This document shows positions 2,083 through 64,000 of a stretch of DNA of 64,000 nt, one piece after another. Positions within the stretch are counted from its first letter, which is position 1. Every line of letters begins with the position of its first letter. The translations under genes and the position numbers were made by a program. The DNA is from Eledone cirrhosa (taxonomy: Eukaryota). The stretch is taken from contig OZ024741.1 of assembly GCA_964016885.1 (NCBI GenBank), forward strand, positions 238,390,001-238,454,000. Direction: 5' to 3'. Under the pieces are notes generated by a model. The model was given only the letters and a program-made list of their open reading frames with translations, was not told where the DNA came from and searched no databases.

Positions 2083-4479
2083 CTGTGGAACTGGTGGAAG
2101 TCGTCTGGGTGTTGTTGAGAATTTCCAGTCATTGGTTAACTGTTCCATCTCTGGATAATATGGACTTTTAGGGTTTATTGACTGAAGATTTCTAGCAAAT
2201 ATATCGTCTGCATTTCTGGTTATTGCAACAGGATTGTTGGTGTGATACAATATTTGTCTCATCTCAGTCGGAGATAGGAATTTTGGATTATCTATTGTTG
2301 TAGGTGAGTTATTGGTGTGATTAATACATCTGAAAACACACAGTGTTATTGACACTACAATAGCCACAGATATTATTACAGCTGCTGCTACAATGATAAT
2401 TACCCAAGTCATATTGAGGTTGTTACCAGTCTGTAAGTGGACAGCATTCAACATTGGAGATGTATCATTACTAACAAACAATGTTAGTATGATAACAGTT
2501 GTTGCTGATTGAACTGGAGTACCACCGTCTTTTACTATAAACTGTAGGTCATATGTTCCTGCATCATTTTGGTAAACTACCCGAGAGAAAGATAAGACAC
2601 CAGTATGGGAGTTGACTGTAAACAGGTTTTTATCATTAGATCTCAGTATTCCATATGTGAGGAAAGCATTGTTTCCAGTGTCTTTGTCAGAGGCTTTCAG
2701 AATTGTGATGTCTTTCTTACTGTGTGGATCATAGTGGACATCTAGATTGTAAGGGTCATTAATAGGAAAGGTTAAATAGGGAGCATTATCATTTTTATCT
2801 AGAATCTCAATAACAATATTGGCAGTGTTATTCAGAGAAGGTGTTCCATTATCTTTGACTAAAATCTGGAATTTATAGATGTCTTTTACTTCCCGATCTA
2901 TTGATTGTGATGTAGAAATAAATCCATATTTTGTAAGTTGGAAAGGAATGTTATCATTGTTGTTATCATTGATGATAGAATATGTAAGTTGACCTCCATC
3001 TTCAAGATCAGGGTCTGTAGCATTGATGAAGCCAATAGGGAAGTCAACTTTCTGGTTTTCATAGGTGAGGAATTGGAATGTATCTTTGGTAAAATGTGGC
3101 TGTACATCATTGACATCAGTTACTTTGACAGAGAATTGTTTCTTAGTCTTTAACTCAGGTGATCCCATGTCATGACATAAAATAGATACAACATAGTGAT
3201 CTATAGTTTCTCTATCAAGAGGTTCTTTCACCAATATTTTATATTCTTTAGAACCCATATTAGAAAGTTGAAACATTTTATGGTGAATATTACATTTAAT
3301 TTGTCCATTAGGACCACTATCAGTATCAATCACTATAACATAAGCTATGAAACCACCAATTTTACTTGCTTCTGAAATAGCTGTAGATGTCTCAGTTAAA
3401 GGTGACACAAAATCTATATTTATATTTGGAGCATTATTTTGATTGCTTATTACATTAATAATTAACATTGCTGTAGAACGTAATGAAGGAATCCCATCAT
3501 CCCTAACTTCAATGTCCAGTTTGTAATTTTGCTGTATATTTTTGTAAAAATTCTCATTTAAAAATAGCTCACCATTTGGTTTGAGTTTAAAGTTTCTTTC
3601 TGCATATGAACTTGTTCTTTGGTAAAAGTTATAAGTAACATTTCCATTTCGACCTGAATCTAAATCTGTAGCTGATATAACAAACACAGGAGAAGATATG
3701 TGATGTGTATCACTAATGGTGATATTGTATGTTTGTTGAGAAAACATAGGCCTGTTATCATTGACATCTATAACAGATATTTCTATGCTTAGAAAACCTT
3801 CTTTTGGAGGTGAACCTCCATCTTTAGCCACTAACTGTAACATATAAGTGTCTTTTAGTTCTCTGTCTAACAATCCTTGTAGAGTAATTTTAAGTATATT
3901 CATTCCATCAGATTCTTTAAATATGGATAGTGAGAATTTTTTACTTTTATCTTTAAGTTTATATGTGATGTTTGAATTGAGAACACCAATGTCTTTATCA
4001 ACAGCATTTGGTATTGATTTTGTTGATCCTTTAGCATCTGTTTCATCAAATTCTAATTTTATTTCTTTTCTATGATAGTTGGGTTGGTGGTCATTAATAT
4101 CATCTATAACTATTTTAATCTTTAATATCTTTAGGAACGTTTCTTCTTTCCTCACAGCTACTTTAACAATCCTGAAACATTCTTTCTTGTAAATACAAAG
4201 TATTTCAGCATCCAGTGTCTGTGTCGTATATAGCTTTCCTGTGTTGGTGACATTGAATAAGTGAGAACCACTTGACACTGTCCTTTGTAGTTGTGTAAAT
4301 GTAATGAGAGTGTGTTGTTTATGTGTGAGAAAGTGTGTTAAGTTAGAATCAACAGCAATGTCTCCGATATAGGTGTGAGGTCTGTCTTCTTCATTGACAT
4401 GGTATGTAATGTCTATCGACACAACAAAATATATCAGTCCATAGAAAAGATAAAACTCTAGGGTGTTGATTATAATCAT
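2083..4479 (-). CDS. PCDH: Protocadherin g1, large exon (signal peptide, 6 EC repeats, TM, proximal tail)
   Basis: 802-aa ORF with DRE, DxNDxxP and AxDGG motifs, EC1 Cys pair LCIYKKEC and TM WVIIIVAAAVIISVAIVV. Acceptor at 4521-4522; donor CAG|gtaccc at 2082. Confidence 0.96.
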
Positions 4480-12209: not shown

Positions 12210-12240
<31 letters not shown>

Positions 12241-12683: not shown

Positions 12684-12747
<64 letters not shown>

Positions 12748-12841: not shown

Positions 12842-12872
<31 letters not shown>

Positions 12873-12895
12873 CATATATATATATACATATATGC

Positions 12896-12942
<47 letters not shown>

Positions 12943-13013
12943 CATATATATATACATATATATATATACATATATACATATACATATATACATATACATA
13001 TATATATATATAC

Positions 13014-13044
<31 letters not shown>

Positions 13045-13139
13045 CATATATATATACATACATATATATATATATACATATATATATACATACATATATA
13101 TACATATATATATATACATACATATATACATATATATAT
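11830..13139. repeat. ~1.3-kb compound (TA)n/(TACA)/(TACC) microsatellite
   Basis: Seen directly; source of the YI-repeat ORFs. Confidence 0.98.
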
Positions 13140-15732
13140 GCTCTTTTACCTGTTCCAGCCATCTCACTGAGACCATGCTGGGGCTCCGCCCTTGTTGCTA
13201 CACATTTTATCTCCAGCCTGTATTGGTTGGCTACTTGTGCAAGAGGGAGTTCATTGCTGCTGCTCTTAGGTTTCCCTTGTGCCTTGCTGTGGGCTCATCT
13301 GGGATCCTGGATAGCAAGGTGTCGAGATGTTTCTTGAAGACATCCACATCCACACGATGCAGATCTCTCAGATCCCTCGGCAGCTTGTTGAAGAGTTGAG
13401 GGTTCTTGAACCCCAGGCTATTGCAATATTTGGTCTTATGTGGAAGACGGGACCTTTGGCACCACACAGTGACATCCTGTTCAATGGTTGGTCCAGCTCC
13501 CAATGCCAAAGTTTTGGCGCTAGTCCCTCCAGGATTTTCCCCATGTAGATCACGGCGTATCTCTCCCGTCTTTGTTCCAAGGAGTAGAGGTTCAGTTCTT
13601 TTATCCTCTCCCAGTAGTTTATCTCCTACATCGTCGCAATCCTCTTGGTGTAGCTTCGCTGGATTGCCTCAAGCTCCGTGGTTAGTTTGACACTATGGGG
13701 TGACAACAACTGGGAGCAATAGTCCAGGCGGCTTAGGACAAATGCGTCTATAGTGTCAACATGGTGTCTCGGTTTCTTGTCCGGAAAGTCCTCAAGATCC
13801 AGCCAGCGAGTCATCTGCACATTGTCGCCACTTTCATGATGTGTGAGGAAAAAGATGCATCGTCGCTCATGTCTATACCCAGGTCTCGTACCGATTTCAA
13901 CACGGGAATATCGGTTCCTCCTAGTCTGGCATAACTGTGTTGTACTGTATTTGTGTTTGCAGGTTTGTATTGTAGAGCTTGGAATTTGCCAGCATTAAAC
14001 TACCTCTTGCACCAGTAGCCAACCAATACAGGCTGGAAATAAAATGTGTAGCAACAAGGGTGAAGCCCCAACATGGCCTCAACCAGATGGCTGGAACAGG
14101 TAAAAGAGTATATATATATATGTATATATATATGTATGTATATATATATGTATATATTAAAATATGGCATCCATATCTTGTTGTAAAAAGGCAGCGTCAG
14201 CCGGGTTTTTGATTGCCTGTTCTACCTTAGTGTCATCAGCATAGCTAGCGAGAGATGTTGTATGTACTACAGTGGGCATGTCTGAGAGAGCCACCAAAAA
14301 TAGTAGTGGTCCCAGGACTGTGCCTTGGGGCACCACACTTGTTATTGATGTTTCCTTTGAGAGGGCCCTGTTTGCTGCAACTGTCTGACTTCTGTCCTTT
14401 AAGAAGTCATGCAGCCACTCACCTACTTTTCCAGTTAAGCTGAGTCTGTGTAGTTTGTGACATATCATTCCATGGTCGACCTTGTCAAAGGCCTTTGCAA
14501 AGTCAAGATATATCATGTCCACATGTGCGCTGTCTAGCAGTTGTTTCAGTACTCAGTCGTAGTGATGTAGCAGCTGTGTAAGGCAGCTTCTTCCTGGGCG
14601 AAAGCCATGCTGCGTGCTAGTCAGCGGTCATTTTCCTCAAGGAAAGTGATCAGTTTCTTTCTGATGATTCGCTCCATGACCTTACTGATATGTAATGTCA
14701 GGGAGACTGGCCTATAGTTTTTGGCCTCCGCTCTGCTACCTCCTTTATGGATAGGGCATATTGTGCCTTCTTTCAGCTCCCCGGGTAGTCTACCACTAGC
14801 CAAGGAGCTTCTGAAGAGCGTCATCAGTGGAGTTGCTAAGGCCCACTTACATGTTTTTAAGAGGACTGCTGGGAAACCATCAGGTCCAGCAGCTGAATCT
14901 GTTCTAATTTCATCTATGGCGTACACCACATCCTCCTCCATTATGTCTATGTGGTTGATGGTCACCATTTCTTCATGGAGTGTTGTGCCATCAAAGAAAT
15001 CCTCTGGCTTTGTTATTTGCATGTGCCTCAGTGGACATGTGAACACACTTTTGTACTGTTCGTTCAGTATTTCACTTATTTCTTGGGGATTCTCAGTTAA
15101 TGAACCGTCTTTATGGAAGAGTGGCACAATGTACCGAGGCAGTCTCTTTTGCAAATTTAAAGAAGGCTTTAGGGTATTGTTTTAATATTTTCTATGGCCT
15201 GCTTTCTTTCTTTGCCCTGTCATTTTCATGGGAAAGTTTGAGTGCAATCTCGATGTCAAGTAGTGCACGTTTCAAATAGGATTCATTCTTGTATTTGTTT
15301 TCTTGTTCTGCATTCAACTGGTTTGAGAGGTTAGTTCTACGTCTCATAAGGATTTTCCTATCTCTGGGAATAAGATTTTTGTGTCTGTTGGCCTTTTTCT
15401 CTGGGACAAACTTTTGGAATATAGTTTGTATCGTTGTCATGAAGTGTTGAAAATGTGTGTTGGTGTCTTTTGTGGTGATATTGTCGCTCCATATTTGCTT
15501 CCGGATTTCTCTCTTGATCTTTTTCCAGTTAGCCTTGTAGAAGTTAAGGCAGGATAAGGTCCTGGTGCTTCTTGATGGTTGTGTCTCTGTTGGTTTTCTC
15601 GGACCACACATCATTAGTTCTACTAAATTATGATCCGAGAAAATTGTTGGTGTCACCTTTACATCGTGGATGAGCACTGCATTGTTTGAACACACTTTTG
15701 TACTGTTCGTTCAGTATTTCACTTATCTCTTG
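13140..15732 (-). mobile_element. 5'-truncated CR1/L2-group LINE (end of endonuclease, RT, 3' end), frameshifted
   Basis: ORF pieces read FSDHNLV, NYRPVSLT, YLDFAKAFDKVDH, VPQGTVLGPLLF, YADDTK, SRLDYC and LFNKLP; 3' end abuts (TA)n. Confidence 0.93.
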
Positions 15733-20698: not shown

Positions 20699-23101
20699 CT
20701 GTTGTGGAACTGGCGGAAGTCTTCTGGGTGTTGTTGAGAATTTCCATTCATTAGTTAACTGCTCCATCTCTGGATAATATGGACTTTTAGGGTTTATTGA
20801 CTGAAGATTTCTAGCAAATATGTCGTCTGCATTTCTGGTTATTGCAACAGGATTGTTGGTGTGATACAGTATTTGTCTCATCTCAGTCGGAGATAGGAAT
20901 TTTGGATTATCTGTTGTTGTAGGTGAGTTATTGGTGTGATTAATACATCTGAAAACACACAGTGTTATTGACACTACAATAGCCACAGATATTATTACAG
21001 CTGCTGCTACAATGATAATTACCCAAGTCATATTGAGGTTGTTACCAGTCTGTAAGTGGACAGCATTCAACATTGGAGATGTATCATTACTAACAAACAA
21101 TGTTAGTATGATATCAGTTGTTGCTGATTGAACTGGAGTACCACCATCTTTCACTATAAACTGTAGGTCATATGTTCCTGCATCATTTTGGTAAACTGCC
21201 CGAGAGAAAGATAAGACACCAGTATGGGAGTTGACTGTAAACAGGTTTTTATCATTAGATCTCAGTATTCCATATGTGAGGAAAGCATTGTTTCCAGTGT
21301 CTTTGTCAGAGGCTTTCAGAATTGTGATATCTTTCTTACTGTGTGGATCATAGTGTACATCTAGATTGTAAGGGTCATTAATAGGAAAGGTTAAATAGGG
21401 AGCATTATCATTTTTATCTAGAATCTCAATAACAATATTGGCAGTGTTATTCAGAGAAGGTGTTCCATTATCTTTGACTAAAATCTGGAAGTTATAGATG
21501 TCTTTCACTTCCCGATCTATTGATTGTGATGTAGAAATAAATCCATATTTTGTAAGTTGGAAAGGAATGTTATCATTGTTGTTATCATTGATGATAGAAT
21601 ATGTAAGCTGACCTCCATCTTCAAGATCAGGGTCTGTAGCATTGATGAAGCCAATAGGGAAGTCAACTTTCTGGTTTTCATAGGTGAGGAATTGGAATGT
21701 ATCTTTGGTAAAATGTGGCTGTACATCATTAACATCAGTTACTTTGACAGAGAATTGTTTCTTAGTCTTTAACTGAGGTGATCCCATGTCATGACATACA
21801 ATAGATACAACATAGTGGTCTATAGTTTCTCTATCAAGAGGTTCTTTCACCAATATTTTATATTCTTTAGAACCCATGTTAGAAAGTTGAAACATTTTAT
21901 GGTGAATATTACATTTAATTTGTCCATTAGGACCACTATCAGTATCAATGACCATAACATAAGCTATAAAACTCCCAATTTTACTTGCTTCTGAAATAGC
22001 AGTAGAGGTTTCTGTTAAAGGAGACACAAAATCTATATTTATATTTGGAGCATTATTTTGGTTGTTAATTACATTAATAATTAACATTGCCATAGAGCTC
22101 AATGAAGGAATTCCTCCATCCCTGGCTTCAATGTACAGTTGGTATTTACTTTCTCTATTTCGAAAGAAATCTTCAGTGGTGAAAATTTCTCCAGATTTAG
22201 GATTTAATTTGAAATGTTTCTTGGCATGTTTATTTGTATTTCTATGTAAATAGTAAGTAATATTTCCATTTTGGCCAGAATCTTTGTCTGTAGCTGATAA
22301 AACAAACGCAGGTGAAGATATGTGATGTGTATCACTGATGGTGATATTGTATGTTTGTTGAGAAAATTTTGGTTGATTATCATTGACATCTGTAACAGAT
22401 ATTTCTATGTTAAGAATTCCTTGTTTTGGTGGTGAACCTCCATCTTTAGCCACCAACTGTAACATATAAGTGTCCCTTTCTTCTCTGTCTAACACTCCTG
22501 CTAAGGCTATTTTAAGTAGATTTCTTCCATCAAATCCTTTAAACATAGACAGTGAGAATTTCTTACTTTTATCTTTGAGTTTATATGTGATGTTAGAATT
22601 GGAAACACCAATGTCTTTATCAACAGCATTTGGTATTGATTTTGTTGAGCCTTTTCCATCTGTTTCATCAAACTGTAATTGTATTTGTTTTTGTGGAAAC
22701 TCTGGCTGATGGTCATTAATATCTTCTATGAATATTTTAATCTTCAATATCTTCATAAATGTTTCTGATTTTCTTACTGCTACTTTAACAATTCTGGAAC
22801 ATTCCTTGTTATATGTACACAGAGACTCAGCATCCAGTGTCTGTGTAGTGTATAGTTTTCCTGTGTTTGTGACATTGAATAAGTGAGAACCACTTGACAC
22901 TGTTCTTTGTAGTTGTGTAAATGTAATGAGAGTGTGTTGTTGATGTGTAAGAGAGTGTGTTAAGTTAGAATCAACAGCAATGTCTCCTATATAGGTGTGA
23001 GGACTGTCTTCTTCATTGACATGATAAATAAGATCTAAGGACACAACAGAATACATCAGTCCACAGAGAAGGGAAAACTGCAGGGTGTTGCTTATAATCA
23101 T
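20699..23101 (-). CDS. PCDH: Protocadherin g2 large exon
   Basis: 805-aa ORF, 6 EC plus TM; acceptor at 23141-23142; donor CAG|gtacct. Confidence 0.96.
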
Positions 23102-28490: not shown

Positions 28491-30890
28491 CTGTGGAACT
28501 GGTGGAAGTCTTCTGGGTGTTGTTGAGAATTTCCATTCATTGGTTAACTGTTCCATCTCTGGATAATATGGACTTTTAGGGTTTATTGACTGAAGATTTC
28601 TAGCAAATATATCGTCTGCATTTCTGGTTATTGCAACAGGATTGTTGGTGTGATACAGTATTTGTCTCATCTCAGTCGGAGATAGGAATTTTGGATTATC
28701 TATTGTTGTAGGTGAGTTATTGGTGTGATTAATACATCTGAAAACACACAGTGTTATTGACACTACAATAGCCACAGATATTATTACAGCTGCTGCTACA
28801 ATGATAATTACCCAAGTCATATTGAGGTTGTTACCAGTCTGTAAGTGGACTGCAGTCAACATTGGAGATGTATCATTACTAACAAACAGTGTTAGTATGA
28901 TAGCTGTTGTTGCTGATTGAACTGGAGTACCACCATCTTTCACTATAAACTGTAGGTCATATGTTCCTGCATCATTTTGGTAAACTGCCCGAGAGAAAGA
29001 TAAGACACCAGTATGGGAGTTGACTGTAAACAGGTTTTTATCATTAGATCTCAGTATTCCATATGTGAGGAAAGCATTGTTTCCAGTGTCTTTGTCAGAG
29101 GCTTTCAGAATTGTGATGTCTTTCTTACTGTGTGGATCATAGTGGACATCTAGATTGTAAGGGTCATTAATAGGAAAGGTAAAATAGGGAGCATTATCAT
29201 TTTTATCTAGAATCTCAATAACAATATTGGCAGTATTATTCAGAGAAGGTGTTCCATTATCTTTGACTAAAATCTGGAATTTATAGATGTCTTTCATTTC
29301 CCGATCTATTGATTGTGATGTAGAAATAAATCCATTTTTTGTAAGTTGGAAAGGAATGTTATCATTGTTGTTATCATTGATGATAGAATATGTAAGCTGA
29401 CCCCCATCATCAAGATCAGGGTCTGTAGCATTGATGAAGCCAATAGGGAAGTCAACTTTCTGGTTTTCATAGGTGAGGAATTGGAATGTATCTTTGGTAA
29501 AATGTGGCTGTACATCATTGACATCAGTTACTTTGACAGAGAATTGTTTCTTAGTCTTTAATGGAGGTGATCCCATGTCATGACATATAATAGATACAAC
29601 ATAGTGATCTATAGTTTCTCTATCAAAAGGTTCTTTCACCAATATTTTATATTCCTTGGAACCCATATTAGAAAGTTGAAACATTTTATGTTGAATATTA
29701 CATTTAATTTGTCCATTAGGACCACTATCAGTGTCAATGACCATAACATAAGCTATAAAACTCCCTATTACACTTGCTTCTGAAATAGCAGTAGAGGTTT
29801 CTGTTAAAGGAGACACAAAATCTATATTTATAGATGGAGCATTATTTTGATTGCTAATTACATTAATACTTAACATTGCCATAGAACTTAATGAAGGAAT
29901 TCCACCATCTTTGGCTTCAATGTACAGTTGGTATTTACTTTCTTTATTTCTAAAGAAATCTGCATTAGTGAAAATTTCTCCAGATTTGGAATTTAATTTG
30001 AAATGTCTTCTTGCATATTTATTTGTATTTCTATGTAAATAGTAGGTGATATTTCCATTTTGACCAGAATCTAAATCTATAGCTGATAAAACAAACACAG
30101 GAGAAGATATATGATGTGTATCACTAATGGTTATATTATATAGTTTTTTAGTAAATATAGGTCTGTTATCATTGACATCAATAACAAATATTTCTATGTT
30201 TAGAAAACCTACTTTTTGTGGTGACCCTCCATCTTTAGCCACTAACTCTAACATATAAGTGTCTTTCAATTCCCTGTCTAACACTCCTTGTAGAGTAATT
30301 TTAAGTATATTTATTCCATCAGTTTCTTTAAATATGGACAGTGAGAATTTCTTACTTTTATCATTAAGTTTATATGTGATGTTAGAATTGAGAACACTAA
30401 TGTCTTTATCAACAGCATTTGGTATTGATTTTGTTGATCCCTTTCCATCTGTTTCATCAAACTGTAATTGTATTTGTTTTTGTGGAAACTCTGGCTGATG
30501 GTCATTAATATCTTCTATGAATATTTTAATCTTCAATATCTTCATAAATGTTTCTGATTTCCTCACTGCTACTTTAACAATTCTGGAACATTCCTTGTTA
30601 TATGTACACAGAGACTCAGCATCCAGTGTCTGTGTAGTGTATAGTTTTCCTGTGTTTGTGACATTGAATAAGTTAGAACCACTTGACACTGTCCTTTGTA
30701 ATTGTGTAAATGTAATGAGAGTGTGTTGTTGATGTGTAAGAGAGTGTGTTAAGTTAGAATCAACAGCAATGTCTCCTATATAGGTGTGAGGACTGTCTTC
30801 TTCATTAACATGATAAATAAGATCTAAGGACACAACAGAATATATTAATCCAAAGAGAATATAAATCGGTAGAGTGCTGATTATAACCAT
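28491..30890 (-). CDS. PCDH: Protocadherin g3 large exon
   Basis: The 828-aa ORF includes read-through into the intron. True donor CAG|gtacct at 28490; acceptor at 30930-30931. Confidence 0.96.
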
Positions 30891-36181: not shown

Positions 36182-36270
36182 CTATTTTTTATATATTGGT
36201 TCTAAATATGTATCTTGTTGATGTTCACCTTTTGGTGTTGGTGGGATATTTGGTGTGTAGTTACTGTATT
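36182..36270 (-). CDS. PCDH: Protocadherin g4 terminal coding exon
   Basis: EYSNYTPNIPPTPKGEHQQDTYLEPIYKK*. Confidence 0.8.
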
Positions 36271-36839: not shown

Positions 36840-36987
36840 CTGATGTTTGATGTGTAATATCTCCTTCACTCAAACCCCGTTTATGTTCTCTTTGAGATGG
36901 TAATGTATCACTTAAGTTGTTTGATGTCACAATACTGCTGCTATCACCTTGCTCACAAGACCCATCTGAAATCTGCATATTGTATAT
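36840..36987 (-). CDS. PCDH: Protocadherin g4 cytoplasmic exon
   Basis: 148 nt; donor variant G|gtagta. Confidence 0.86.
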
Positions 36988-37528: not shown

Positions 37529-39922
37529 CTGTGGAACAGGTGGAAGTCTTCTGGGTGTTGTTGAGAATTTCCATTCATTAGTTAACTGCTCCATCTCTGG
37601 ATAATATGGACTTTTAGGGTTTATTGACTGAAGATTTCTAGCAAATATATCGTCTGCATTTCTGGTTATTGCAACAGGATTGTTAGTGTGATACAGTATT
37701 TGTCTCATCTCAGTCGGAGATAGGAATTTTGGATTATCTATTGTTGTAGGTGAGTTATTGGTGTGATTTATACATCTGAAAACACACAGTGTTATTGACA
37801 CTACAATAGCCACAGATATTATTACAGCTGCTGCTACAATGATAATTACCCAAGTCATATTGAGATTGTTACCAGTCTGTAAGTGGACAGCATTCAACAT
37901 TGGAGATGTATCATTACTAACAAACAGTGTTAGTATGATAGCAGTTGTTGCTGATTGAACTGGAGTGCCACCATCTTTCACTATAAACTGTAGGTCATAT
38001 GTTCCTGCATCATTTTGGTAAACTGTCCGAGAGAAAGATAAGACACCAGTATGAGAGTTGACTGTAAACAGGTTTTTATCATTAGATCTCAGTATTCCAT
38101 ATGTGAGGAAAGCATTGTTTCCAGTGTCTTTGTCAGAGGCTTTCAGAATTGTGATGTCTTTCTTACTGTGTGGTTGGTAGTGGACATCTAGATTGTAAGG
38201 GTCATTAATAGGAAAGGTAAAATAGGGAGCATTATCATTTTTATCTAGAATCTCAATAACAATATTGGCAGTGTTATTCAGAGAAGGTGTTCCATTATCT
38301 TTGACTAAAATTTGGAAATTATAGATGTCTTTTACTTCCCGATCTATTGACTGTGATGTAGAAATAAATCCATATTTTGTAAGTTGGAAAGGAATGTTAT
38401 CATTGTTGTTATCATTGATGATAGAATATGTAAGTTGACCTCCATCTTCAAGATCAGGGTCTGTAGCATTGATGAAGCCAATAGGGAAGTCAACCTTCTG
38501 GTTTTCATAGGTGAGGAATTGGAATGTATCTTTGGTAAAATGTGGTTGTACATCATTAACATCAGTTACTTTGACAGAGAATTGTTTCTTAGTCTTTAAC
38601 TGAGGTGATCCCATGTCATGACATACAATAGATACAACATAGTGATCTATAGTTTCCCTATCAAGAGGTTCTTTCACCAATATTTTATATTCTTTAGAAC
38701 CCATATTAGAAAGTTGAAACATTTTATGTTGAATATTACATTTAATTTGTCCATTAGGTCCACTATCAGTGTCAATAACCATAACATAAGCTATAAAACT
38801 CCCAATTTTACTTGCTTCTGAAATAGCTGTAGAAGTCTCTGTTAAAGGAGACACAAAATCTATATTTATAGTTGGAGCATTATTTTGGTTGCTAATTACA
38901 TTAATAATTAACATTACCATAGAACTTAATGAAGGAATTCCCCCATCTTTGGCTTCAATGTACAGTTGATATTTACTTTCTTTATTTCTAAAGAAATCTT
39001 CATTGGTGAAAATTTCTCCAGATTTGGAATTTAATTTGAAATTTTTTCTGGCATATTTATTTGTATTTCTGTGTAAATAGTAAGTAATATTTCCATTTTG
39101 ACCAGAATCTAAATCTGTAGCTGATAAAACAAATACAGGAGAAGATATATGATGTGTATCACTAATGGTTATATTATATAGTCTTTTAGTAAATATAGGT
39201 CTGTTATCATTTACATCAATAACAGATATTTCTATGTTTAGAAAGCCTTCTTTTTGTGGTGAACCTCCATCTTTAGCCACTAACTCTAACATGTAAGTGT
39301 CTTTTAATTCCCTGTCTAACACTCCTTGTAGAGTAATTTTAAGTATATTTATTCCATCAGTTTCTTTAAATATGGATAGTGAGAATTTCTTACTTTTATC
39401 ATTAATTTTATATGTGATGTTAGAATTGAGACCACTAATGTCTTTATCAACAGCATTTGGTATTGATTTTGTGGAGCCTTTTGCTTCAGTTTCATAAAAT
39501 ATTATTTCCAGTTGATTTTTTGGAAACTCTGGCTGATGGTCATTAATATCTTCTATGAATATTTTAATCTTTAATATCTTCATAAATGTTTCTGATTTTC
39601 TTACTGCTACTTTAACAATTCTGGAACATTTCTTGTTATATGTACACAGAGACTCAGCATCCAGTGTCTGTGTAGTGTATAGTTTTCCTGTGTTAGTGAC
39701 ATTGAATAAGTTAGAACCACTTGACACCGTCCTTTGTAGTTGTGTAAATGTAATGAGAGTGTGTTGTTGATGTGTAAGAGAGTGTGTTAAGTTAGAATCA
39801 ACAGCAATGTCTCCTATATAGGTGTGAGGACTGTCTTCTTCATTGACATGGTAAGTAATGTCTATGGACACAACAGAATATATTAATCCAAAGAGAATCG
39901 GTAGAGTGCTGATTATAACCAT
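37529..39922 (-). CDS. PCDH: Protocadherin g4 large exon
   Basis: 802-aa ORF; acceptor at 39962-39963; donor CAG|gtaact. Confidence 0.96.
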
Positions 39923-41284
39923 TGTTGTAATTCATTATTTATTGTTGTATAATCCATATATCTAGAAAAAATAAGGAAACACATTGATAAATAGAAATGT
40001 TGTTGTGAAATACATACATTTAAAAAAACTAAACTAAAAAATAATATTTTAAATCTGGATTTAGTTATTAGAAAGATTGAACTTTGTTTTTACTGTTTAG
40101 GCAGGAAGTGAAAGGCCATGCTGCTGACACATTCATGACCTCTTTGATTTGCAAGAGGGACGCCAAAATTTCTACTCATTTTGGTGACCTGGCTTGAATG
40201 CTTGCAATAGAATTGACTAAATGCATTCAAAGAGCAGGCTGGTTGAGGGAATATTGGTGAAAGATTAACACAACCAACGAAATTGTCTACAGTTGTATTA
40301 AAAATTGGAACACAACTAAAGATTTCTATTAATAGTTGTATAAATGACATTACAAATGCATAAATAACCTTATAAATTTAAGAAAACTCGGGTATATATG
40401 TATAAATGCGTAAATAACATTATAGTTATAGTCTACAAACGTTGTTGAGTGTTTTAGCATCTTTAATGTTCTAAACAAACTTTAGAATGTCCTTACATAA
40501 TTAAAAATTTAAAACATCTCACCTATTTTGAGAATGTCTATCGATGTAACTGTTCCCCATTTCTAAACATACAAAATAAGTGGAAGTATATTTCTTGTTG
40601 GACGATATATTCCTGTAAAAATTATTCAGAAGTAACCACTAGCTCTACAGAATTGCATTTTTGCAATCTTCCATCTTGAGACAATAGAGTTATCTGCCCC
40701 TCTCAATGTTAAATATTTGATACTACAATTTCTTTGTGGGTGGTCAATATATTGAGAAGCTTCTATGTAAGGTGGAATGACACATTTGTCCAATTCTGTG
40801 TTTTATTGAAGTATTTAATTTATCTTCTAACTAATGCACCTCCACAATATGCTATCATTACATGAAATTACTAATTTTATAATAATATGGTGGGCACCGA
40901 AAAGTTTCAGGTGAGAATTAGCTTTGTAAAACTCTATAGAAATGAATTCTGATCTAAAATGATAAATTATCTAACCGATAAATATATATCTACGATCATG
41001 GTGCAAAGTTGTTGAATAGCATTGATCAGCATTTGTCATGAAAACATATAAAACAGAGATAATCATGCCCAAATATGTGAAACATCAGTCTGTTCTGGTA
41101 TAATGTTATAATATATATACATTATAATATCTCTTTGAGGAACAAAGTGAAATTCAGAACATGTTTCTTCTAGATTGTTATCTAGTCTGACCTTTTCTGC
41201 TTGAACCCTGTAATATTGTGTTCATAATGATAATGGAGGAAAGTCAGTTACTGGAAAATAGATTTCTTTATAATTTACAATTGA

Positions 41285-41578
41285 TGTGAAGTTATGTTGG
41301 TACAACAACATCCAGTCTGAAACAAATGAGGTCGTGTAGGTGTCACGACAAAAAAAAAAACACACAGTCCACTCTGTAATGTGGCCGTGTAGGTAACACA
41401 GTAAAAATCTCCCAGTTCACTCTGTAAACACGGTTGGTTTTAGGAAGGGCATCCAGCCGTAGAAAACCCGCCAGACAGTCCTATACGAGCAGGACAACCA
41501 ATCTTGCCCCAGGTGGGAAAACTCCCGTCCAAACCCATGCAAGCGTGGAAGATGGACGTTAAACGATGATGATGATGA
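41285..41578 (+). mobile_element. RTE 3'UTR fragment in g4 intron 1 (shared with g5)
   Basis: Ends gttaaacgatgatgatgatga; empty site acaattgatatcgaaacagagattg in g3 and g6. Confidence 0.88.
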
Positions 41579-42224
41579 GATTGAATGTAACATGTCTGTT
41601 AATTATTGTGGTTATTTTCTTTTATATGTGCAGGTTTTTGTTATTTTGTGAATAATATTGTTCTTGCTTGATATTTATTTTTCTTATTGTTTGTAATGGA
41701 TAGTTGATGAAACATATTCCCCATATGTTTCAGTGAACTTTTTAGTTTAAATGTTTCTGTATGTTGTGTTTTTTAATAAAATTTAGTAATATGAAGTGTG
41801 TTATTTATAACATTTATTGTTTTAGTCATGTTTGTGAGAGATTGAGTTCCTAGGTAGGACTGACATAGTTCTTGATGGATGTTTATAATTGATTGGAAAC
41901 TGTGTTTATATAAATATAATCTTGACTGAATATTGGTCAGTTTTGTGTATATTGTGTATTTAATGATCATTACAATTAGGTTTTCATGTTCACTATATCT
42001 TCCTAAGCTTAGTGGAATTTCACAAATATCAGAAAAATAAAAATTCTTAAGCTTTACAACATATAGTTTTGTGTTTACAAATCAAATTTGTCTAGGCCCA
42101 ACTAAGTAGCAGTAATGCAACAGTACTAACTGATTATTTAATATCTCTTGTGATTCATAATTATTATAGAAAAGTGATCAATATATATATATATATATAT
42201 ACACTCTTCTTTTTTGCTCTTGCT

Positions 42225-43325
42225 CAATGGAAGTGGGGTAATTTTGGGTCAATGATCCCAAAAGAATCATTGTGCATAGAGCCGACCAGATTTACCAGTG
42301 CCCTCCACAGCTGTCGGTCCCATGCCAGCCTTTTTGCATCCTCCAAGTTGATGTTGAGCCACTGGAAATCTTACTTATTCACATCCCTCAATCTGGTACA
42401 GGGCCTGCCATAGGGTCCCTTCCAGCCTGAAGTTGTTGAACATGAGTAAGGCTCTGGTAGGATGATCTGGTGGAAAGCATGGGGCATGTCCAAACCAGTG
42501 CATGTGGTGCATGTTTATGAGGTGGAAGGTTGCAGGCTGATCTGTGTATGCAACTCTTTGTTGGAAATGCTGTCATACCATCTGTTGTTCTTGATAGTCC
42601 TCAAAGCCATCAATCCTCTTTGCCAGGGTTTTTGTGAAGGGCCATTCTTCTGCTTCATAGTGGAGAATGGATAGGACCTACGCATTGTAGATATAGCTTC
42701 ATCTTCCAGCAGATAGAGCAGTAGCACTAAAGGGGCTTCCATAGGGAGTGCATGACTCCAGCGGCCTAACCACATTTTCTGTTGATCTTCATGGTCAGGT
42801 CACCAATGATGGTGACTCTTGAGCCTAGGTAAATGAAGGTGCTGACAAACTACACAATATAAGGGTCAATATAAAGTGGCATTGTATCTAGGCCATTGCT
42901 GACATGCATCAGCTTGTTCTTTTCCCAGCTCGCTTGATGGCCAAGCTCTGCTGATTCCTCCCAGCATAGGGTCATTGTGACTCTCAGCTGATCAATCGTG
43001 ATGGTGAATAGGGTGATGGCATCTGTGTACTCCAGGTTGGTAAGGTGATGGTTCCCAAAGGTAATGCCAGAAACTCATTCATGTTCATCAGATAGTCAAT
43101 GACACATTTGAAATGTCAGGGCAGCGCTGTCTGATCTCACTGTTGATGGGGAATCAGTCAGTCCTTTCTGTTCACCTGCATGCAGGTCTTGGCACAGTTA
43201 TAGATCCGTTAGAACAAGGTGGTGATCTTCGGAGACACATCAATGAGCAGAATTATCCAGAGGTATGCATGGTTGATGAGGGCAGAGATCTCTGTGGAAC
43301 TTCCAAGATCTTTCCATAATGAGAT
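42225..43325 (-). mobile_element. Old RTE-type LINE fragment (g4 copy)
   Basis: Paralog of 33370-34470. Confidence 0.8.
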
Positions 43326-44063
43326 GGAGAACAGGAATGTGGTCCATAAAACGAGGGACAGAATTTAAACAAATGCCTTTCAAATGAAGATTTTTATTTA
43401 ACTCTATTTGAACATATAGAAACCTGAAGTTATTTATACTTCAGGGCAAAATGAAAGTGACTGAAACAATATCGTCATCATTTTATATTCTCTTTTTCAT
43501 GATTACATGGTTATAAATATAAAATTATATTGAATTGAATTCTAAGCAAATGCAAATGAGTTTCATTTATATTATAAGAAGCAGAGTGAAGTTAATTGAT
43601 TCATAGAGTATTTAACAATATATATGTAGTGTAATATAATTATTCTGTATCTTGATATTTTCAATCATATACAAGCAGTCCTGATATCATCTATAATTAA
43701 GACACAATTTAAACGAAGAGAAATAATTATATTTCTAATGTTCCCTGTTTAACCTGAGTAGTAGAAATATATTTAATAGTATATACGAATAATAGCAAAG
43801 TATATGAAATTATGTTATTAAATACAATAAATTGATAGATCAGTATTTCAATAATGGTTACTGTTAAAAATATCTTTCTTCCCAAAGTAACTACACTACT
43901 ACAGTAGTAATTGTTCTTGTAAATGGCTACATTGCTCTCTGGTCATCTATTATAAAGTATTATCATGAAATACTGTTATATTTATAATCTATTTCTCATA
44001 TCTTCATGTGAAATATATATTCCCAGAACATCTAATGTAAAATGTCAATATAAAGAGACTTAC

Positions 44064-44210
44064 CTATATTGTTTAATCCTTTGTTTGTGTCTCTTACAGA
44101 AGACATTTATTCTGACGTAGTGTTCCAGTGTAACTGCTGCTGTAGTAGTGTGACAATGGCAGTATCTTGATGATGTAGTTTTGTGAGTCATAGTGGGAGC
44201 CAACTACACT
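44064..44210 (-). promoter_or_regulatory. Conserved putative promoter / first exon of g4
   Basis: Same block, GTAAGT donor. Confidence 0.68.
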
Positions 44211-45039
44211 TTGGATGATCTTATTTATCTGTACATATTGTATTTATTAAATTTAATTTATTTTACCCAATGTTTAAAATATTAAATAATGAATTTTGCA
44301 ATAAATATTTCTGATTTATACTAAACTACATTAAAATATTTATAAGTGATATTCATTCCTTGTACACGGGATGTTTACAGCACACTAATGTGTACACAAA
44401 TTCACTGAGTGTTATATGTAAAACATTATTTTCTAACCTCAGTGATAACTTCATAAGACTTATTGGAGAAGATTAATCTATAAAATATTTACTAACGTTA
44501 TAAATTATATATATTTTTTTACAATATCTTCTGTTACTTTATTACTTTTTCATAATATAAATAATAAATGAAAAATCAATGTGTTTTTAAAATGTTAATA
44601 TTATTATCATTATCACCATAGTAGAAATTGTAAATAATTTGAATAGTGTTCTTCATATAATCTTCGGATGGTAGATTATATGGGGCTAAATGTCCCTTTC
44701 TTCCATCTAGTATTGATACTAATGATATATGAACAAGAATTCCATATATTATACCCATATTTCTGAAGATTTTTGCCCAATTTATGATAAAAATAAACCA
44801 ATGAGAATATTTGGGAATACTCTAAAATCATGTCATTTAATTCTTTCTTTCTCAAGATATAACAAACATATTTCCAAATACATATTCTTCAATATTACTT
44901 TGAATTAATAAGTTGTGTGTGCTAATTAATCTAATTTCATTTTAAAACAGAAGCAATGTTCTAATTTTATTGAAGTATTTATGTTAAAAATAAAATAATC
45001 TCCAAGCAGGATAATTGCAGTTGTGTTAACTTGAGCTTA

Positions 45040-45128
45040 CTATTTTTTATATATTGGTTCTAAATATGTATCTTGTTCATGTTCACCTTTTGGTGTTGGT
45101 GGGATATTTGGTGTGTAGTTACTGTATT
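45040..45128 (-). CDS. PCDH: Protocadherin g5 terminal coding exon
   Basis: 89 nt, conserved. Confidence 0.8.
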
Positions 45129-45690
45129 CTGGAAAATAGATAAATACATTATAAATAGTATTAGAAGGGAAAGTTATCTTTATATGTATGGAAAAATATT
45201 CTTTTCTAAATGAAGCAACTATTATCATATTCATTTTTATGATAATAATGAAAATTATTGTGTACAGTGCTCAGGTGCACTACAAATCACCAAAGGTGCA
45301 TGTATAGTACATAGAATAATGTACAAATGCCAGTAAAGTGAATAGTGTATGAGTCATGATACAAACACATGCATACATGTGTATGGAGAGGGTATATCAG
45401 TTGTGGTGTTGGTGAATTTCAGGAAGCATGGGAGTTTTGAAAAATGCAGTGTCCCGACAGCTAACATCTGATGCAGGTAATTTCTGTGCTTCAGTAACTA
45501 TGGGCATTTTGTTTCTTCTTTCAATTTTACATGACTTTTACCTGATTATATTAATAAACATCTTTTTAAATAGTTCCCACTAAATATTGTATAAAATACA
45601 TTAATTACTCTTATATTAGTTAAATATGGTTTAATGATATATGTTACAATTGTGCCAGTGAATTAATAAAAAAGGAATATCCACTATTAC

Positions 45691-45838
45691 CTGATGTTTG
45701 ATGTGTAATATCTCCTTCACTCAAACCCCGTTTATGTTCTCTTTGAGATGGTAATGTATCACTTAAGTTGTTTGATGTCACAATACTGCTGCTATCACCT
45801 TGCTCACAAGACCCATCTGAAATCTGCTTATTGTATAT
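45691..45838 (-). CDS. PCDH: Protocadherin g5 cytoplasmic exon
   Basis: 148 nt, canonical boundaries. Confidence 0.88.
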
Positions 45839-46379
45839 CTGTTATGAAACAACAAAGATTTCAATGCACATTTGAAAGATGAAAGTACATACTATAACTA
45901 TATATTTTTACATCTTTGCAGAAAAATAATAATTCTTTTTACTGTATCAGAATGTTAAGGAGATTTAGGGAAAGTATTTCTAATTTCAACTATCAGCTTT
46001 GAAAATAGTAAATATCATATGACTGGTGTTGTATACCTAATCAGAACATCTGTTATTGTTTTGAGAATCTCTGATATTTAATATTTCAAATTGGTTTATG
46101 AGATATATAGATCTCTGAAATCAGGATATGAATATATTTGAAATAAATTTTACTGTTATTATAATTTTTGTTATCAGAATTGTCAATATTTACTATAACA
46201 AATAGTTTCTTATATATAATTCCTTCTTAAAATAAGATATGAATACACTGAGAATAAATTTTACTGTTATTATTCAAAGTCGTAGGAAAATATATGAAGA
46301 AAATTAAATATGATTGTATATAATTAAATGTAAATACATTAAAATTAATATTTAAGAGGTGGATTTACTGCATAGTTAC

Positions 46380-48773
46380 CTGTGGAACAGGTGGAAGTCT
46401 TCTGGGTGTTGTTGAGAATTTCCATTCATTAGTTAACTGCTCCATCTCTGGATAATATGGACCTTTAGGGTTTATTGACTGAAGATTTCTAGCAAATATA
46501 TCATCTGCATTTCTGGTTATTGCAACAGGATTGTTGGTGTGATACAGTATTTGTCTCATCTCAGTCGGAGATAGGAATTTTGGATTATCTATTGTTGTAG
46601 GTGAGTTATTGGTGTGATTTATACATCTGAAAACACACAGTGTTATTGACACTACAATAGCCACAGATATTATTACAGCTGCTGCTACAATGATAATTAC
46701 CCAAGTCATATTGAGGTTGTTACCAGTCTGTAAGTGGACTGCAGTCAACATTGGAGATGTATCATTACTAACAAACAGTGTTAGTATGATAGCAGTTGTG
46801 ACTGATTGAACTGGAGTACCACCATCTTTCACTATAAACTGTAGGTCATATGTTCCTGCATCATTTTGGTAAACTGCCCGAGAGAAAGATAAGACACCAG
46901 TATGGGAGTTGACTGTAAACAGGTTTTTATCATTAGATCTCAGTATTCCATATGTGAGGAAAGCATTGTTTCCAGTGTCTTTGTCAGAGGCTTTCAAAAT
47001 TGTGATGTCTTTCTTACTGTGTGGATGGTAGTGGGCATCTAGATTGTAAGGGTCATTAATAGGAAAGGTAAAATAGGGATCATTATCATTTTTATCTAGA
47101 ATCTCAATAACAATATTGGCAGTATTATTCAGAGAAGGTGTTCCATTATCTTTGACTAAAATCTGGAAGTTATAGATGTCTTTCACTTCCCGATCTATTG
47201 ATTGTGATGTAGAAATAAATCCATATTTTGTAAGTTGGAAAGGAATGTTATCATTGTTGTTATCATTGATGATAGAATATGTAAGTTGACCTCCATCTCC
47301 AAGATCAGGGTCTGTAGCATTGATGAAGCCAATAGGGAAGTCAACTTTCTGGTTTTCATAGGTGAGGAATTGGAATGTATCTTTGGTAAAATGTGGCTGT
47401 ACATCATTGACATCAGTTACTTTGACAGAGAATTGTTTCTTAGTCTTTAATGGAGGTGATCCCATGTCATGACATACAATAGATACAACATAGTGGTCTA
47501 TAGTTTCTCTATCAAGAGGTTCTTTCACCAATATTTTATATTCTTTAGAACCCATATTAGAAAGTTGAAACATTTTATGGTGAATATTACACTTAATTTG
47601 TCCATTAGGTCCACTATCAGTATCAATAACCATAACATAAGCTATAAAACTCCCTATTACACTTGCTTCTGAAATAGCTGTAGAGGTTTCTGTTAAAGGA
47701 GACACAAAATCTATATTTATAGCTGGAGCATTATTTTGATTGCTAATTACATTAATATTTAACATTGCCATAGAACTTAATGAAGGAATTCCACCATCTT
47801 TGGCTTCAATGTACAGTTGGTATTTACTTTCTTTATTTCTAAAGAAATCTGCATTGGTGAAAATTTCTCCAGATTTGGAATTTAACTTGAAATTTTTTCT
47901 GGCATATTTATTTGTATTTCTGTGTAAATAGTAGGTGATATTTCCATTTTGACCAGAATCTAAATCTGTAGCTGATAAAACAAACACAGGAGAAGATATA
48001 TGATGTGTATCACTGATGGTTATATTATATAGTTTTTTAGTAAATATAGGTCTGTTATCATTTACATCAATAACAAATATTTCTATGTTTAGAAAACCTA
48101 CTTTTTGTGGTGAACCTCCATCTTTAGCCACTAACTGTAATATATAAGTGTCTTTTAATTCCCTGTCTAACACTCCTTGTAGAGTAATTTTAAGTATATT
48201 CATTCCATCAGTTTCTTTAAATATGGACAGTGAGAATTTTTTACTTTTATCTTTTAGTGTATATGTGATGTTAGAATTGATAACACCATTGTCTTTATCA
48301 ACAGCATTTGGTATTGATTTTGTCAATCCCTTTACTTCAGTTTCATCAAACTCTATTTTTATTTGCTTTTGTGGAAACTCTGGCTGATGGTCATTAATAT
48401 CTTCTATGAATATTTTAATCTTCAATATCTTCATAAATGTTTCTGATTTTCTTACTGCTACTTTAACACTTCTGGAACATTCCTTGTTAGATGTACACAG
48501 TGACTCTGCATCCAGTGTCTGTGTAGTGTATAGTTTTCCCGTGTTAGTGACATTGAATAAGTTAGAACCACTTGACACTGTCCTTTGTAGTTGTGTAAAT
48601 GTAATGAGAGTGTGTTGTTGATATGTAAGAGAGTGTGTTAAGTTAGAATCAACAGCAATATCTCCTATATAGGTGTGAGGACTGTCTTCTTCATTGACAT
48701 GGTAAATAAGATCTAAGGACACAACAGAATATATTAATCCAAAGAGAATCGGTAGAGTGCTGATTATAACCAT
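46380..48773 (-). CDS. PCDH: Protocadherin g5 large exon
   Basis: 802-aa ORF; acceptor at 48813-48814; donor CAG|gtaact. Confidence 0.96.
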
Positions 48774-55228: not shown

Positions 55229-57630
55229 CTGTGGAACAGGTGGAAGTCTTCTGGGTGTTGTTGAAAATTTCCATTCATTAGTTAACTGCTCCATCTCTGG
55301 ATAATATGGACTTTTAGGGTTTATTGACTGAAGATTTCTAGCAAATATATCGTCTGCATTTCTGGTTATTGCAACAGGATTGTTAGTGTGATACAGTATT
55401 TGTCTCATCTCAGTCGGAGATAGGAATTTTGGATTATCTATTGTTGTAGGTGAGTTATTGGTGTGATTAATACATCTGAAAACACACAGTGTTATTGACA
55501 CTACAATAGCCACAGATATTATTACAGCTGCTGCTACAATGATAATTACCCAAGTCATATTGAGGTTGTTACCAGTCTGTAAGTGGACAGAAGTCAACAT
55601 TGGAGATGTATCATTACTAACAAACAGTGTTAGTATGATAGCAGTTGTTACTGATTGAACTGGAGTACCACCATCTTTCACTATAAACTGTAGGTCATAT
55701 GTTCCTGCATCATTTTGGTAAACTGTCCGAGAGAAAGATAAGACACCAGTGTGGGAGTTGACTGTAAACAGGTTTTTATCATTAGATCTCAGTATTCCAT
55801 ATGTGAGAAAAGCATTGTTTCCAGTGTCTTTGTCAGAGGCTTTCAGAATTGTGATGTCTTTCTTACTGTGTGGATCATAGTGGACATCTAGATTGTAAGG
55901 GTCATTAATAGGAAAGGTAAAATAGGGTGCATTATCATTTTTATCTAGAATCTCAATAACAATATTGGCAGTGTTATTCAGAGAAGGTGTTCCATTATCT
56001 TTGACTAAAACCTGGAATTTATAGATGTCTTTCACTTCCCGATCTATTGATTGTGATGTAGAAATAAATCCATTTTTTGTAAGTTGGAAAGGAATGTTAT
56101 CATTGTTGTTATCATTGATGATAGAATATGTAAGCTGACCCCCATTATCAAGATCAGGGTCTGTAGCATTGATGAAGCCAATAGGGAAGTCAACTTTCTG
56201 GTTTTCATAGGTGAGGAATTGGAATGTATCTTTGGTAAAATATGGCTGTACATCATTGACATCAGTTACTTTGACAGAGAATTGTTTCTTAGTCTTTAAC
56301 TGAGGTGATCCCATGTCATGACATACAATAGATACAACATAGTGATCTATAGTTTCCCTATCAAGAGGTTCTTTCACCAATATTTTATATAATCCTTGGA
56401 ACCCATATTAGAAAGTTGAAACATCTTATGTTGAATATTACACTTAATTTGTCCATTAGGTCCACTATCTGTGTCAATGACCATAACATAAGCTATAAAA
56501 CTTCCAAATTTACTTGCTTCCGAAATAGCAGTAGAGGTCTCAGTTAAAGGAGTTAAAAAATCTATATTTATAGTTGGGGCATTATTTTGAATGCTAACTA
56601 CATTAATAATTAACACTGCTTTAGAACTTAATGAAGGAATTCCCCCATCTCTAGCTTCAACATACAATTGGTATTTGCTTTCTTTATTTCTAAAGAAATC
56701 TTCATTAGTGAAAATTTCTCCAGATTTGGAATTTAATTTGAAATATTTTCTGGCATATTTATTTGTATTTCTGTGTAAATAGTAGGTGATATTTCCATTT
56801 TGACCAGAATCTAAATCTGTAGCTGATAAAACAAACACAGGAGAAGATATATGATGTGTATCACTGATAGTTGTATTATATATTTTTTCAGTTAATATTG
56901 GTCTGTTATCATTTACATCAATAACAGATATTTCTATGTTTAGAAAACCTACTTTTTGTGGTGAACCTCCATCTTTAGCCACTAACTGTAACATATAAGT
57001 GTCTTTTAATTCCCTGTCTAACACTCCTTGTAGAGTAATTTTAAGTATATTCATTCCATCAGTTTCTTTAAATATGGTCAGTGAGAATTTCTTACTTTTA
57101 TCATTAAGTTTATATGTGATGTTAGAATTGAGAACACTAATGTCTTTATCAACAGCATTTGGTATTGATTTTGTTGAGCCTTTTCCATCTGTTTCATCAA
57201 ACTGTAATTGTATTTGTTTTTGTGGAAACTCTGGCTGATGGTCATTAATATCTTCTATGAATATTTTAATCTTTAATATCTTTATAGATGTTTCTGATAT
57301 TCTCACTGCAACTTTAATAATTCTGGAACATCCTTTGTTATATGTACACAGAGACTCAGCATCCAGTGTCTGTGTAGTGTATAGTTTTCCTGTGTTGGTG
57401 ACATTGAATAAGTGAGAACCACTTGACACTGTCCTTTGTAGTTGTGTAAATGTAATGAGACTGTGTTGTTGATGTGTAAGGGAGTGTGTTAAGTTGGAAT
57501 CAACAGTAATGTCTCCTATATAGGTGCGAGGACTGTCTTCTTCATTGACATGATAAATAAGATCTAAGGACACAACAGAATACATGAATCCGAAGAGAAG
57601 ATAAATCGGTAGAGTGCTGATTATAACCAT
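55229..57630 (-). pseudogene. PCDH: Protocadherin g6 large exon with a +2 frameshift in EC4
   Basis: Split into ORFs 56374-57630 and 55214-56380. tattttatatAAtccttgg versus tattttatattccttgg in g3; the extra bases are near 56391-56392. Confidence 0.82.
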
Positions 57631-63716: not shown

Positions 63717-64000
63717 CTGTGGAACAGGTGGAAGTCTTCTGGGTGTTGTTGAGAATTTCCATTCATTAGTTAACTGCTCCATCTCTGGATAATATGGACT
63801 TTTAGGGTTTATTGACTGAAGATTTCTAGCAAATATATCGTCTGCATTTCTGGTTATTGCAACAGGATTGTTAGTGTGATACAGTATTTGTCTCATCTCA
63901 GTCGGAGATAGGAATTTTGGATTATCTATTGTTGTAGGTGAGTTATTGGTGTGATTAATACATCTGAAAACACACAGTGTTATTGACACTACAATAGCCA
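63717..64000 (-). CDS. PCDH: Protocadherin g7 large exon, 3' end (continues beyond window)
   Basis: TM end and proximal tail identical in protein sequence to g4 and g6. Confidence 0.93.

Follow-up and report, generated by a model that had tools for sequence, protein, structure and literature searches.

Concerted evolution from EC5 to the transmembrane helix and a divergence island in EC2-EC3 in a tandem protocadherin array of Eledone cirrhosa

The stretch of DNA analysed here, which we call the window, comprises 64,000 nucleotides of the genome of the octopod Eledone cirrhosa (assembly GCA_964016885.1, contig OZ024741.1, positions 238,390,001 to 238,454,000 of the forward strand) and contains six large open reading frames (g1 to g6) and the end of a seventh (g7), all on the minus strand. 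Each large frame codes for a signal peptide, six extracellular cadherin repeats (EC1 to EC6), a transmembrane (TM) helix and the start of a tail. We observed the hallmarks of a protocadherin: an N-terminal Cadherin_2 repeat (Pfam PF08266) plus five stretches of PF00028, located calcium linkers, one TM helix and no prodomain. The closest proteins are the 'protocadherin beta-15-like' proteins of Octopus and Argonauta. When the Eledone genome was searched with EC1, at least 51 close matches were found on one strand within 0.56 Mb around the window, which is thus part of an array of about 50 genes (G000:C2, 238.03-238.59 Mb); the search scored 150 of 268 candidates, and the three further sub-arrays considered below (B, C and D, with 32, 25 and 15 genes) may be incomplete.

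The aligned set consists of 49 genes, 48 intact plus the frameshifted g6; two broken copies within the array (L013 and L045) and two outliers (L046 and L047) were dropped before any count on these 49. Two sub-families with different tails were recognised, Q (26 genes) and P (21 genes, those of the window included), and both types are also present among the Octopus and Argonauta proteins; two odd genes, L001 and L029, belong to neither. P, Q and the three further sub-arrays make up the five gene sets compared here, from which L122 (727 amino acids) was excluded.

Two small cytoplasmic exons belong to each unit. The exon-2 motif lies at most 5.5 kb away in 48 of the 49 genes, and the exon-3 motif was found in 46. 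A contig of run X24, the kind of which is not on record, splices 37529 to 36987 and 36840 to 36270 over GT-AG introns; these joints could derive from any g4-like paralogue, and they were not seen in X21 or X23. The donor that follows PPVPQ had raised the suspicion of constant exons common to the genes, but this was ruled out, every unit having its own small exons. The array therefore consists of whole genes with several exons, duplicated in tandem and in one orientation, in agreement with published accounts of coleoids, in which sub-arrays likewise lie on one chromosome (PMC9068888, PMC6339937, PMC9795677). The features of the window are listed in Table 1.

Table 1. Protocadherin features of the window (positions in the window; EC, extracellular cadherin repeat; TM, transmembrane helix; dS, synonymous divergence; pS, proportion of synonymous differences).
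Feature	Position	Strand	Remarks
g1 large coding exon	2083..4479	-	Introns barely align with those of other window genes; EC5-TM pS still 0.03-0.06
g2 large coding exon	20702..23101	-	
g2 135-nt tract (EC1 end and EC2 first strand)	22610..22744	-	Identical to g6 57139-57273
g2 117-nt tract, overlapping the 135-nt tract	22655-22771	-	Identical to g3 30444-30560
g3 large coding exon	28491..30890	-	
g4 large coding exon (signal peptide, EC1-EC6, TM, first tail part)	37529..39922	-	GT donor at end
g4 EC1	39530..39862	-	First two thirds homogenised between P and Q (pS 0.08-0.18); last third diverging
g4 EC2	39197..39529	-	Divergence island
g4 EC2 first (A) strand, PKNQLEIIFYETEAK	39479..39523	-	
g4 EC3	38873..39196	-	Divergence island; variation mainly at residues ~264-298
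g4 EC4	38543..38872	-	Transition zone, sub-family-specific (P x Q dS 0.43)
g4 EC5, EC6, linker, TM	37775..38542	-	Homogenised array-wide (P x Q dS 0.04-0.06)
g4 own second coding exon, cytoplasmic	36840..36987	-	X24 joint
g4 own third coding exon, with stop	36182..36270	-	X24 joint
g5 large coding exon	46380..48773	-	EC2 48048-48380, EC3 47724-48047, EC5-TM 46626-47393
g5 EC2 first strand, PQKQIKIEFDETEVK	48330..48374	-	
g5 own small exons (~45691-45838 and 45040-45128) with the intron between	45040..45838	-	
g6 large coding exon	55229..57630	-	Frameshifted by a 2-nt insertion near 56394
g7, 3' end of large exon	63717..64000	-	Remainder beyond the window, locus L034

We compared the seven window genes (21 pairs) domain by domain. 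Amino-acid identity was 0.93 in EC1, 0.84 in EC2, 0.82 in EC3, 0.95 in EC4, 0.97 in EC5 and in EC6, 0.98 in the linker and TM helix, and 0.99 in the part of the tail encoded by exon 1. A previous reading of the window made from the sequence alone (the sequence-only reading) had placed the diversity in EC2-EC3 and had described the TM helix and tail as virtually identical in the seven genes; the identities bear out both statements, but the focus does not extend to synonymous divergence (dS) in the window, which is raised over EC1 to EC4 (0.20, 0.20, 0.30 and 0.17, respectively) and falls to 0.05 in EC5, 0.06 in EC6 and 0.025 in the linker and TM helix. Between P and Q (546 pairs), dS was 0.26 in EC1, 1.35 in EC2, 1.25 in EC3, 0.43 in EC4, 0.04 in EC5, 0.06 in EC6 and 0.04 in the linker and TM helix. 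Homogenisation from EC5 as far as the tail, also part of that reading, holds within P but not across P and Q, for which dS of the exon-1 tail is 0.28 and the small downstream exons differ too. Most of EC1 forms a second homogenised zone, present in the whole array, which had not been noticed. The same profile was found in all five gene sets; in the three further sub-arrays the proportion of synonymous differences (pS) is 0.23-0.43 in EC2/EC3 and 0.01-0.06 from EC5 to the TM helix (EC5-TM). Between sub-arrays, pS of EC5/EC6 is 0.30-0.72, and therefore its low values do not come from synonymous constraint.

The comparison with other species revealed that the segments of these genes have different histories. 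In EC5-TM, each of the 47 P and Q genes has a better best match in the other sub-family of its own genome than in the same sub-family of another species. By contrast, EC2, EC3 and EC4 group by sub-family rather than by species in all 47 genes, and EC1 groups by species in 45 of them. In approximately unbiased (AU) tests with 41 and 38 proteins, on cross-species trees built under a simpler model, EC2-3 rejected species clades (log-likelihood difference 618) and EC5-TM rejected P and Q clades (log-likelihood difference 100); the cross-species EC1 tree was poorly resolved. In Argonauta, EC5-TM of P and Q is 0.98 identical, and its identity to the Eledone genome is 0.88. EC5-TM pS stays at 0.03-0.055 in each class of intron divergence, unalignable introns included. 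The introns of the 15 youngest P pairs differ by 0.028, as against an EC1-EC4 pS of 0.11-0.15, and therefore EC1-EC4 carry imported older variation. EC5-TM thus evolves in concert, grouping by species while other segments preserve an older history, and its homogenisation, together with segmental exchange, is strongly supported.

In Eledone, the EC1 of P genes comes closer to the Q type (0.85-0.86) than to the P type (0.76-0.83) of EC1 in other species, which suggests that a Q-derived EC1 may have spread through P in the Eledone lineage; g1, L030 and L031 retain a different EC1 end. Two further observations concern individual genes. The Q-tailed L026 and L028 have an EC2-EC3 whose identity to the remaining paralogues, and to the Octopus and Argonauta proteins compared, is only about 50%, and their ectodomain is a private third type. 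L047, which lies 0.55 Mb off the array (G000:C2:239.13 Mb), has a P-like EC1 (pS 0.29; proportion of nonsynonymous differences, pN, 0.09) and a B-like EC6 (pS 0.15), a hybrid resemblance suggesting that exchange may also operate over a longer range.

All the short motifs on which the sequence-only reading had based a patchwork were present where it placed them. The EC2 first strand PQKQIQLQFDETDGK is common to g2, g3 and g6; DITYH occurs in g1 and g4, and DLIYH in the other five window genes; FSQQTYN is common to g1 and g2, and EASVIG to g3 and g5. IEIFV and TNADF, attributed to g3 and g5, are found in both but also in g7, so this sharing is not exclusive. Identical DNA underlies the shared motifs, in a tract of 135 nt for g2 and g6 and in one of 117 nt for g2 and g3, despite introns that are 17% different or unalignable. 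The conflict between these groupings goes beyond chance: the pairwise homoplasy index (PHI) gave a permutation p of 0.003 for the seven window genes and of 0.001 for P (21) and for Q (26). PHI was not significant when only third positions of the seven genes were used (p 0.075), nor inside Q EC2 alone or Q EC3 alone. In P, 34 of the 210 pairs have an identical run in EC1-4 exceeding those of all 400 permutations. Exchanging the P trees of EC2 and EC3 caused a log-likelihood loss of 468, whereas 30 simulations on a single tree never lost more than 34. For PHI, the z-score of P was -16.5, compared with -2.7 or higher in the simulations; this parametric no-recombination control was relied on instead of AU tests between P domain trees, which are biased by overfitting. 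Per-domain trees and sliding windows, which were among the checks that had been proposed, gave incongruent trees and a synonymous divergence that is not uniform.

Conflicts were also observed outside the coding sequence. The upstream flank of g3 resembles those of g4, g5 and g7, yet its introns cannot be aligned with theirs, and g3 is likely a crossover chimera; g6 and L035 show a flank conflict with g4, g5 and g7 as well. These conflicts point to unequal crossing-over besides gene conversion. Thus the segmental gene conversion originally proposed is sustained by PHI, the tracts, the trees and the grouping by species, but it is insufficient alone. Exchange among paralogues is complete in EC5-TM and strong in EC1, but in EC2-EC3 it takes place only among close relatives.

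In each of the five gene sets, no segment varies more than the first strand of EC2, and residues 115-123 rank at the top in all of them. Over the first 21 codons of EC2, pN (0.19-0.31) and pS (0.31-0.61) peak jointly, with a dN/dS ratio (omega) of 0.2-0.5 in the five sets. Variability per EC2 site is correlated in all ten pairs of sets (rho 0.26-0.64). Positions 118, 120 and 122 stay hydrophobic while 115, 117, 119, 121 and 123 vary, with charge changes. The AlphaFold model of g4 places a strand at residues 117-123, and the variable side chains would face outward in it, because hydrophobic and variable positions alternate. Residue 121 of g4 aligns approximately, with a numbering that may be 1-2 residues off, to gammaB4 residue 111, which is among the specificity positions of the gammaB isoforms (PMC5106212). 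The predicted EC1-4 homodimer of g4 (score 0.05, mark 0.32) provided no interface to map and was used neither way.

Orthologues were compared in these same domains. In three tail-matched Octopus orthologue pairs, identity was 0.95-0.99 in EC2, 0.92-0.97 in EC3 and 0.93-1.00 in the EC2 first strand; the wider orthologue set was chosen on EC2-3 itself, and a clear one-to-one orthologue was found for only 2 of the 49 genes. Of 24 dispersed genes, 18 had a match above 75%, and their orthologue identities from EC1 to EC6 were 0.92, 0.91, 0.88, 0.93, 0.94 and 0.95. Plain relaxed constraint is weakened by both comparisons.

Other features accompany the genes. From g4 to g7 the array is built of repeat units of about 8.8 kb with intergenic DNA 93-95% identical (window 31885-64000), which represent a recent expansion. 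L002 carries part of the 3' exon end once more. The 2-nt insertion of g6 sits in a short AT run and breaks the frame in EC4; the frame would stop after 421 codons, leaving EC1-EC3 and part of EC4 without the TM helix, and g6 may be a pseudogene, a gene for a secreted fragment or an assembly error. A polypyrimidine-AG acceptor lies 26-45 nt upstream of the ATG in 30 of the 49 genes (window 39922-39965 for g4), and therefore a non-coding exon probably precedes the large exon, with the promoter further upstream; no 10-mer was common to most P and Q upstream regions within 1.3 kb, and promoters may lie beyond that distance. An out-of-frame ATG occurs 13 nt before the start codon in g1-g6 and several P genes (window 39935 in g4) and 16 nt before it in many Q genes, and it could dampen translation. 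Between g1 and g2 there is an AT-rich microsatellite of 1.3 kb (window 11830-13139), and two minus-strand frames at window 14621-15710, without a Pfam match at E 0.01, resemble what we take to be a fragment of the second open reading frame of a long interspersed nuclear element.

The explanation that we regard as fairly probable is that gene conversion and unequal crossing-over overwrite EC5-TM and most of EC1, while selection rejects the events that would erase differences in the predicted recognition surface of EC2-EC3. The array would have arisen by whole-gene tandem duplication of an octopod protocadherin; the two kinds of exchange would keep overwriting its homogenised segments, selection would eliminate events reaching the EC2-EC3 differences, and exchange among close relatives could shuffle the retained EC2 and EC3 pieces into new combinations without faster amino-acid change. 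The joint peak of dS and dN fits the retention of old EC2-EC3 variants against conversion, and we infer that selection, rather than the mechanics of recombination, makes the barrier.

Several results weigh against this explanation. No 30-codon window had pN above pS, and no dN/dS above 1 was found at the level of domain, window or strand, the ratio being below 1 in ten of ten segment tests; site-mixture models detected a class with omega above 1 in one of ten EC2/EC3 tests. Recombination between EC2 and EC3 is free in P and would carry a cost if the two domains needed to remain matched. Conservation between orthologues is somewhat lower in EC3 (0.88 in the dispersed genes and 0.61 in one orthologue pair). 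Nine of 119 genes have a paralogue at least 97% identical in EC2-3, and therefore some genes are probably redundant. Finally, toy simulations produced the observed profile in 7 of 36 runs with selection and in 9 of 72 neutral runs in which EC2-3 constraint was relaxed to the level seen in the array, and so did not separate the two; a first set of 160 runs had been set aside because its positive control failed.

The last of these results bears on a neutral feedback, in which weaker constraint on the arrayed copies lets EC2-EC3 drift apart slightly faster until they are too dissimilar to be converted, with no selection on specificity. Within the array, dN/dS is below 0.55 in every domain and higher in EC2/EC3 (0.29-0.41) than in EC1 (0.17-0.21), never exceeding 1, and the slightly lower conservation of EC3 in dispersed genes agrees with this feedback too. 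However, when the constraint of the dispersed genes was used, none of 72 neutral runs gave the observed profile, and EC1, at the exon edge, diverged in neutral runs about as much as EC2-3 or more, the opposite of the data. Moreover, the EC2 first strand, where paralogues differ most in the five sets, is retained between the three tail-matched orthologue pairs. We consider the neutral feedback unlikely.

The barrier might also be mechanical, with conversion hotspots in EC5-EC6 and at the 5' end of the exon whose effect decays with distance, EC2-EC3 being the cold middle. This agrees with the gradients in which pS declines on either side of EC2-3, and with an EC1 homogenisation that depends on the lineage, given that the identity between P and Q EC1 is 0.90 in Eledone and 0.75 in Argonauta. 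In P, GC content at third codon positions is higher in EC1, EC5 and EC6 than in EC2-EC4; however, this contrast also exists in the 24 dispersed genes, and therefore it is no sign of a hotspot. It is uneven at four-fold sites, and the higher values may or may not reflect GC-biased conversion. Hotspots would need the same placement in vertebrates and in five sub-arrays between which 30-72% of the synonymous sites in EC5/EC6 are different, and the sharpest peak is a single strand of 15 codons directly beside the homogenised EC1. Such a mechanical origin seems improbable to us.

Classical positive selection, by which new EC2-EC3 changes would be fixed faster than neutral ones on top of conversion, would explain why charges reverse at every other position of the first strand, and the omega class above 1 in Q EC2 (twice the log-likelihood difference 13.3; six sites with posterior above 0.9, including residues 115, 127 and 130). 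Nevertheless, the other nine tests show nothing, and the homogenised EC5/EC6 gave similar scores, up to 12.6, at two-state sites; these are likely recombination artefacts. Together with the low omega of the strand and of all segments, this makes such an explanation very improbable, even though the high local dS of retained old variants would mask episodic selection. The diversifying selection invoked in the sequence-only reading is thus not supported as accelerated amino-acid change. An assembly artefact, in which collapsed or mis-polished repeats would account for the near-identity of EC5-TM and for the mosaics, could claim the g6 frameshift in an AT run for itself, but it is counted as refuted, since 3-6% of the synonymous sites in EC5-TM still distinguish the copies and the same pattern occurs in Octopus and Argonauta proteins from other assemblies.

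The profile can be compared with that of the vertebrate clustered protocadherins (alpha, beta and gamma), in which six EC repeats, the TM helix and the start of the tail are likewise encoded by one large exon. In those genes dS is highest in EC2/EC3 and lowest in EC5/EC6, the pattern of Noonan et al. 2004 as given by Etlioglu et al. 2016 (PMC4978886), which is in line with the vertebrate variability and conversion that the sequence-only reading had invoked; the ranking in the array is the same, and the match is exact at the domain level. The ratio of highest to lowest dS is 1.4-7.9 in frog and mouse (PMC4978886); here it reaches about 10 inside either sub-family and about 30 when P is compared with Q. 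Nonetheless, the vertebrate clustered genes are not orthologous to the array (27-30% identity), and alpha and gamma splice their variable exons to shared constant exons, whereas each octopod gene has its own small exons. The array genes therefore evolve like vertebrate variable exons but outside that family, and the array is a convergently reached counterpart of the vertebrate pattern. The vertebrate clustered genes are further characterised by a conserved promoter element with stochastic promoter choice and by strictly homophilic, antiparallel trans dimers formed through EC1-EC4. By sequence and by Foldseek on the model, the best solved-structure matches of g4 are Xenopus Pcdh8.1 and human Pcdh10, followed by gammaB4, which brings in the non-clustered delta-2 group (Pcdh8, 10, 17, 18 and 19). 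To our knowledge, delta-2 protocadherins are few, dispersed genes with no array or concerted evolution.

Where homogenised flanks enclose a region in which both synonymous and amino-acid divergence peak, this is regarded as the signature of selection against conversion (PMC3924837). The same local peak of dS and amino-acid change as in that model (Innan 2003; Teshima and Innan 2008), known from the human red/green opsins (PMC3924837), is present here; unlike those cases, the array has tens of paralogues and many alternative states, and exchange persists inside the peak among close relatives. In vertebrates, EC2-EC3 set trans specificity, with EC1 and EC4 giving affinity (PMC5001838; bioRxiv 10.1101/493106), and promiscuous cis pairing takes place via EC5-EC6 (PMC8901172). 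Only by analogy may the EC2-EC3 variants be seen as recognition specificities with like-with-like trans binding, and the uniform EC5-EC6 as allowing cis mixing. It is conceivable, and we put it forward tentatively, that the self/non-self code of vertebrate neurons arose once more in cephalopods, with promiscuous cis pairing through EC5-EC6, isoform-specific trans recognition through EC2 (mostly its first strand) and EC3, and conversion and crossing-over within one exon minting lineage-specific specificities.

Gene conversion in cephalopod protocadherins had been suggested from species-specific clustering of whole sequences (PMC9068888, PMC6339937); as compared with the published coleoid accounts, the present analysis is at the domain level and confines conversion to EC5-TM and part of EC1. 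Our literature searches yielded neither a domain-level analysis nor a study of binding for cephalopod protocadherins, although earlier work may hold part of this, and the cephalopod genome paper makes no functional claim for them (PMC9068888). A divergence island of the vertebrate type in a family that expanded independently is evidence, at the sequence level, for a role as neuronal identity tags. The genes g4 and g5 are 92% identical in EC1-4, as are mouse beta6 and beta8, which are strictly homophilic through five residues (PMC8901172). Finally, the cephalopod expansions have been dated by Jukes-Cantor distances at 65 and 8-14 Ma (million years ago; PMC9795677). P and Q are shared with Argonauta, yet their EC5-TM differs at only 4-6% of synonymous sites; with conversion confined to these segments, whole-gene distances would understate the age of P and Q. 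The 'recent, species-specific' expansions of this family may thus be partly conversion, their dates pulled young if they are based on whole genes.

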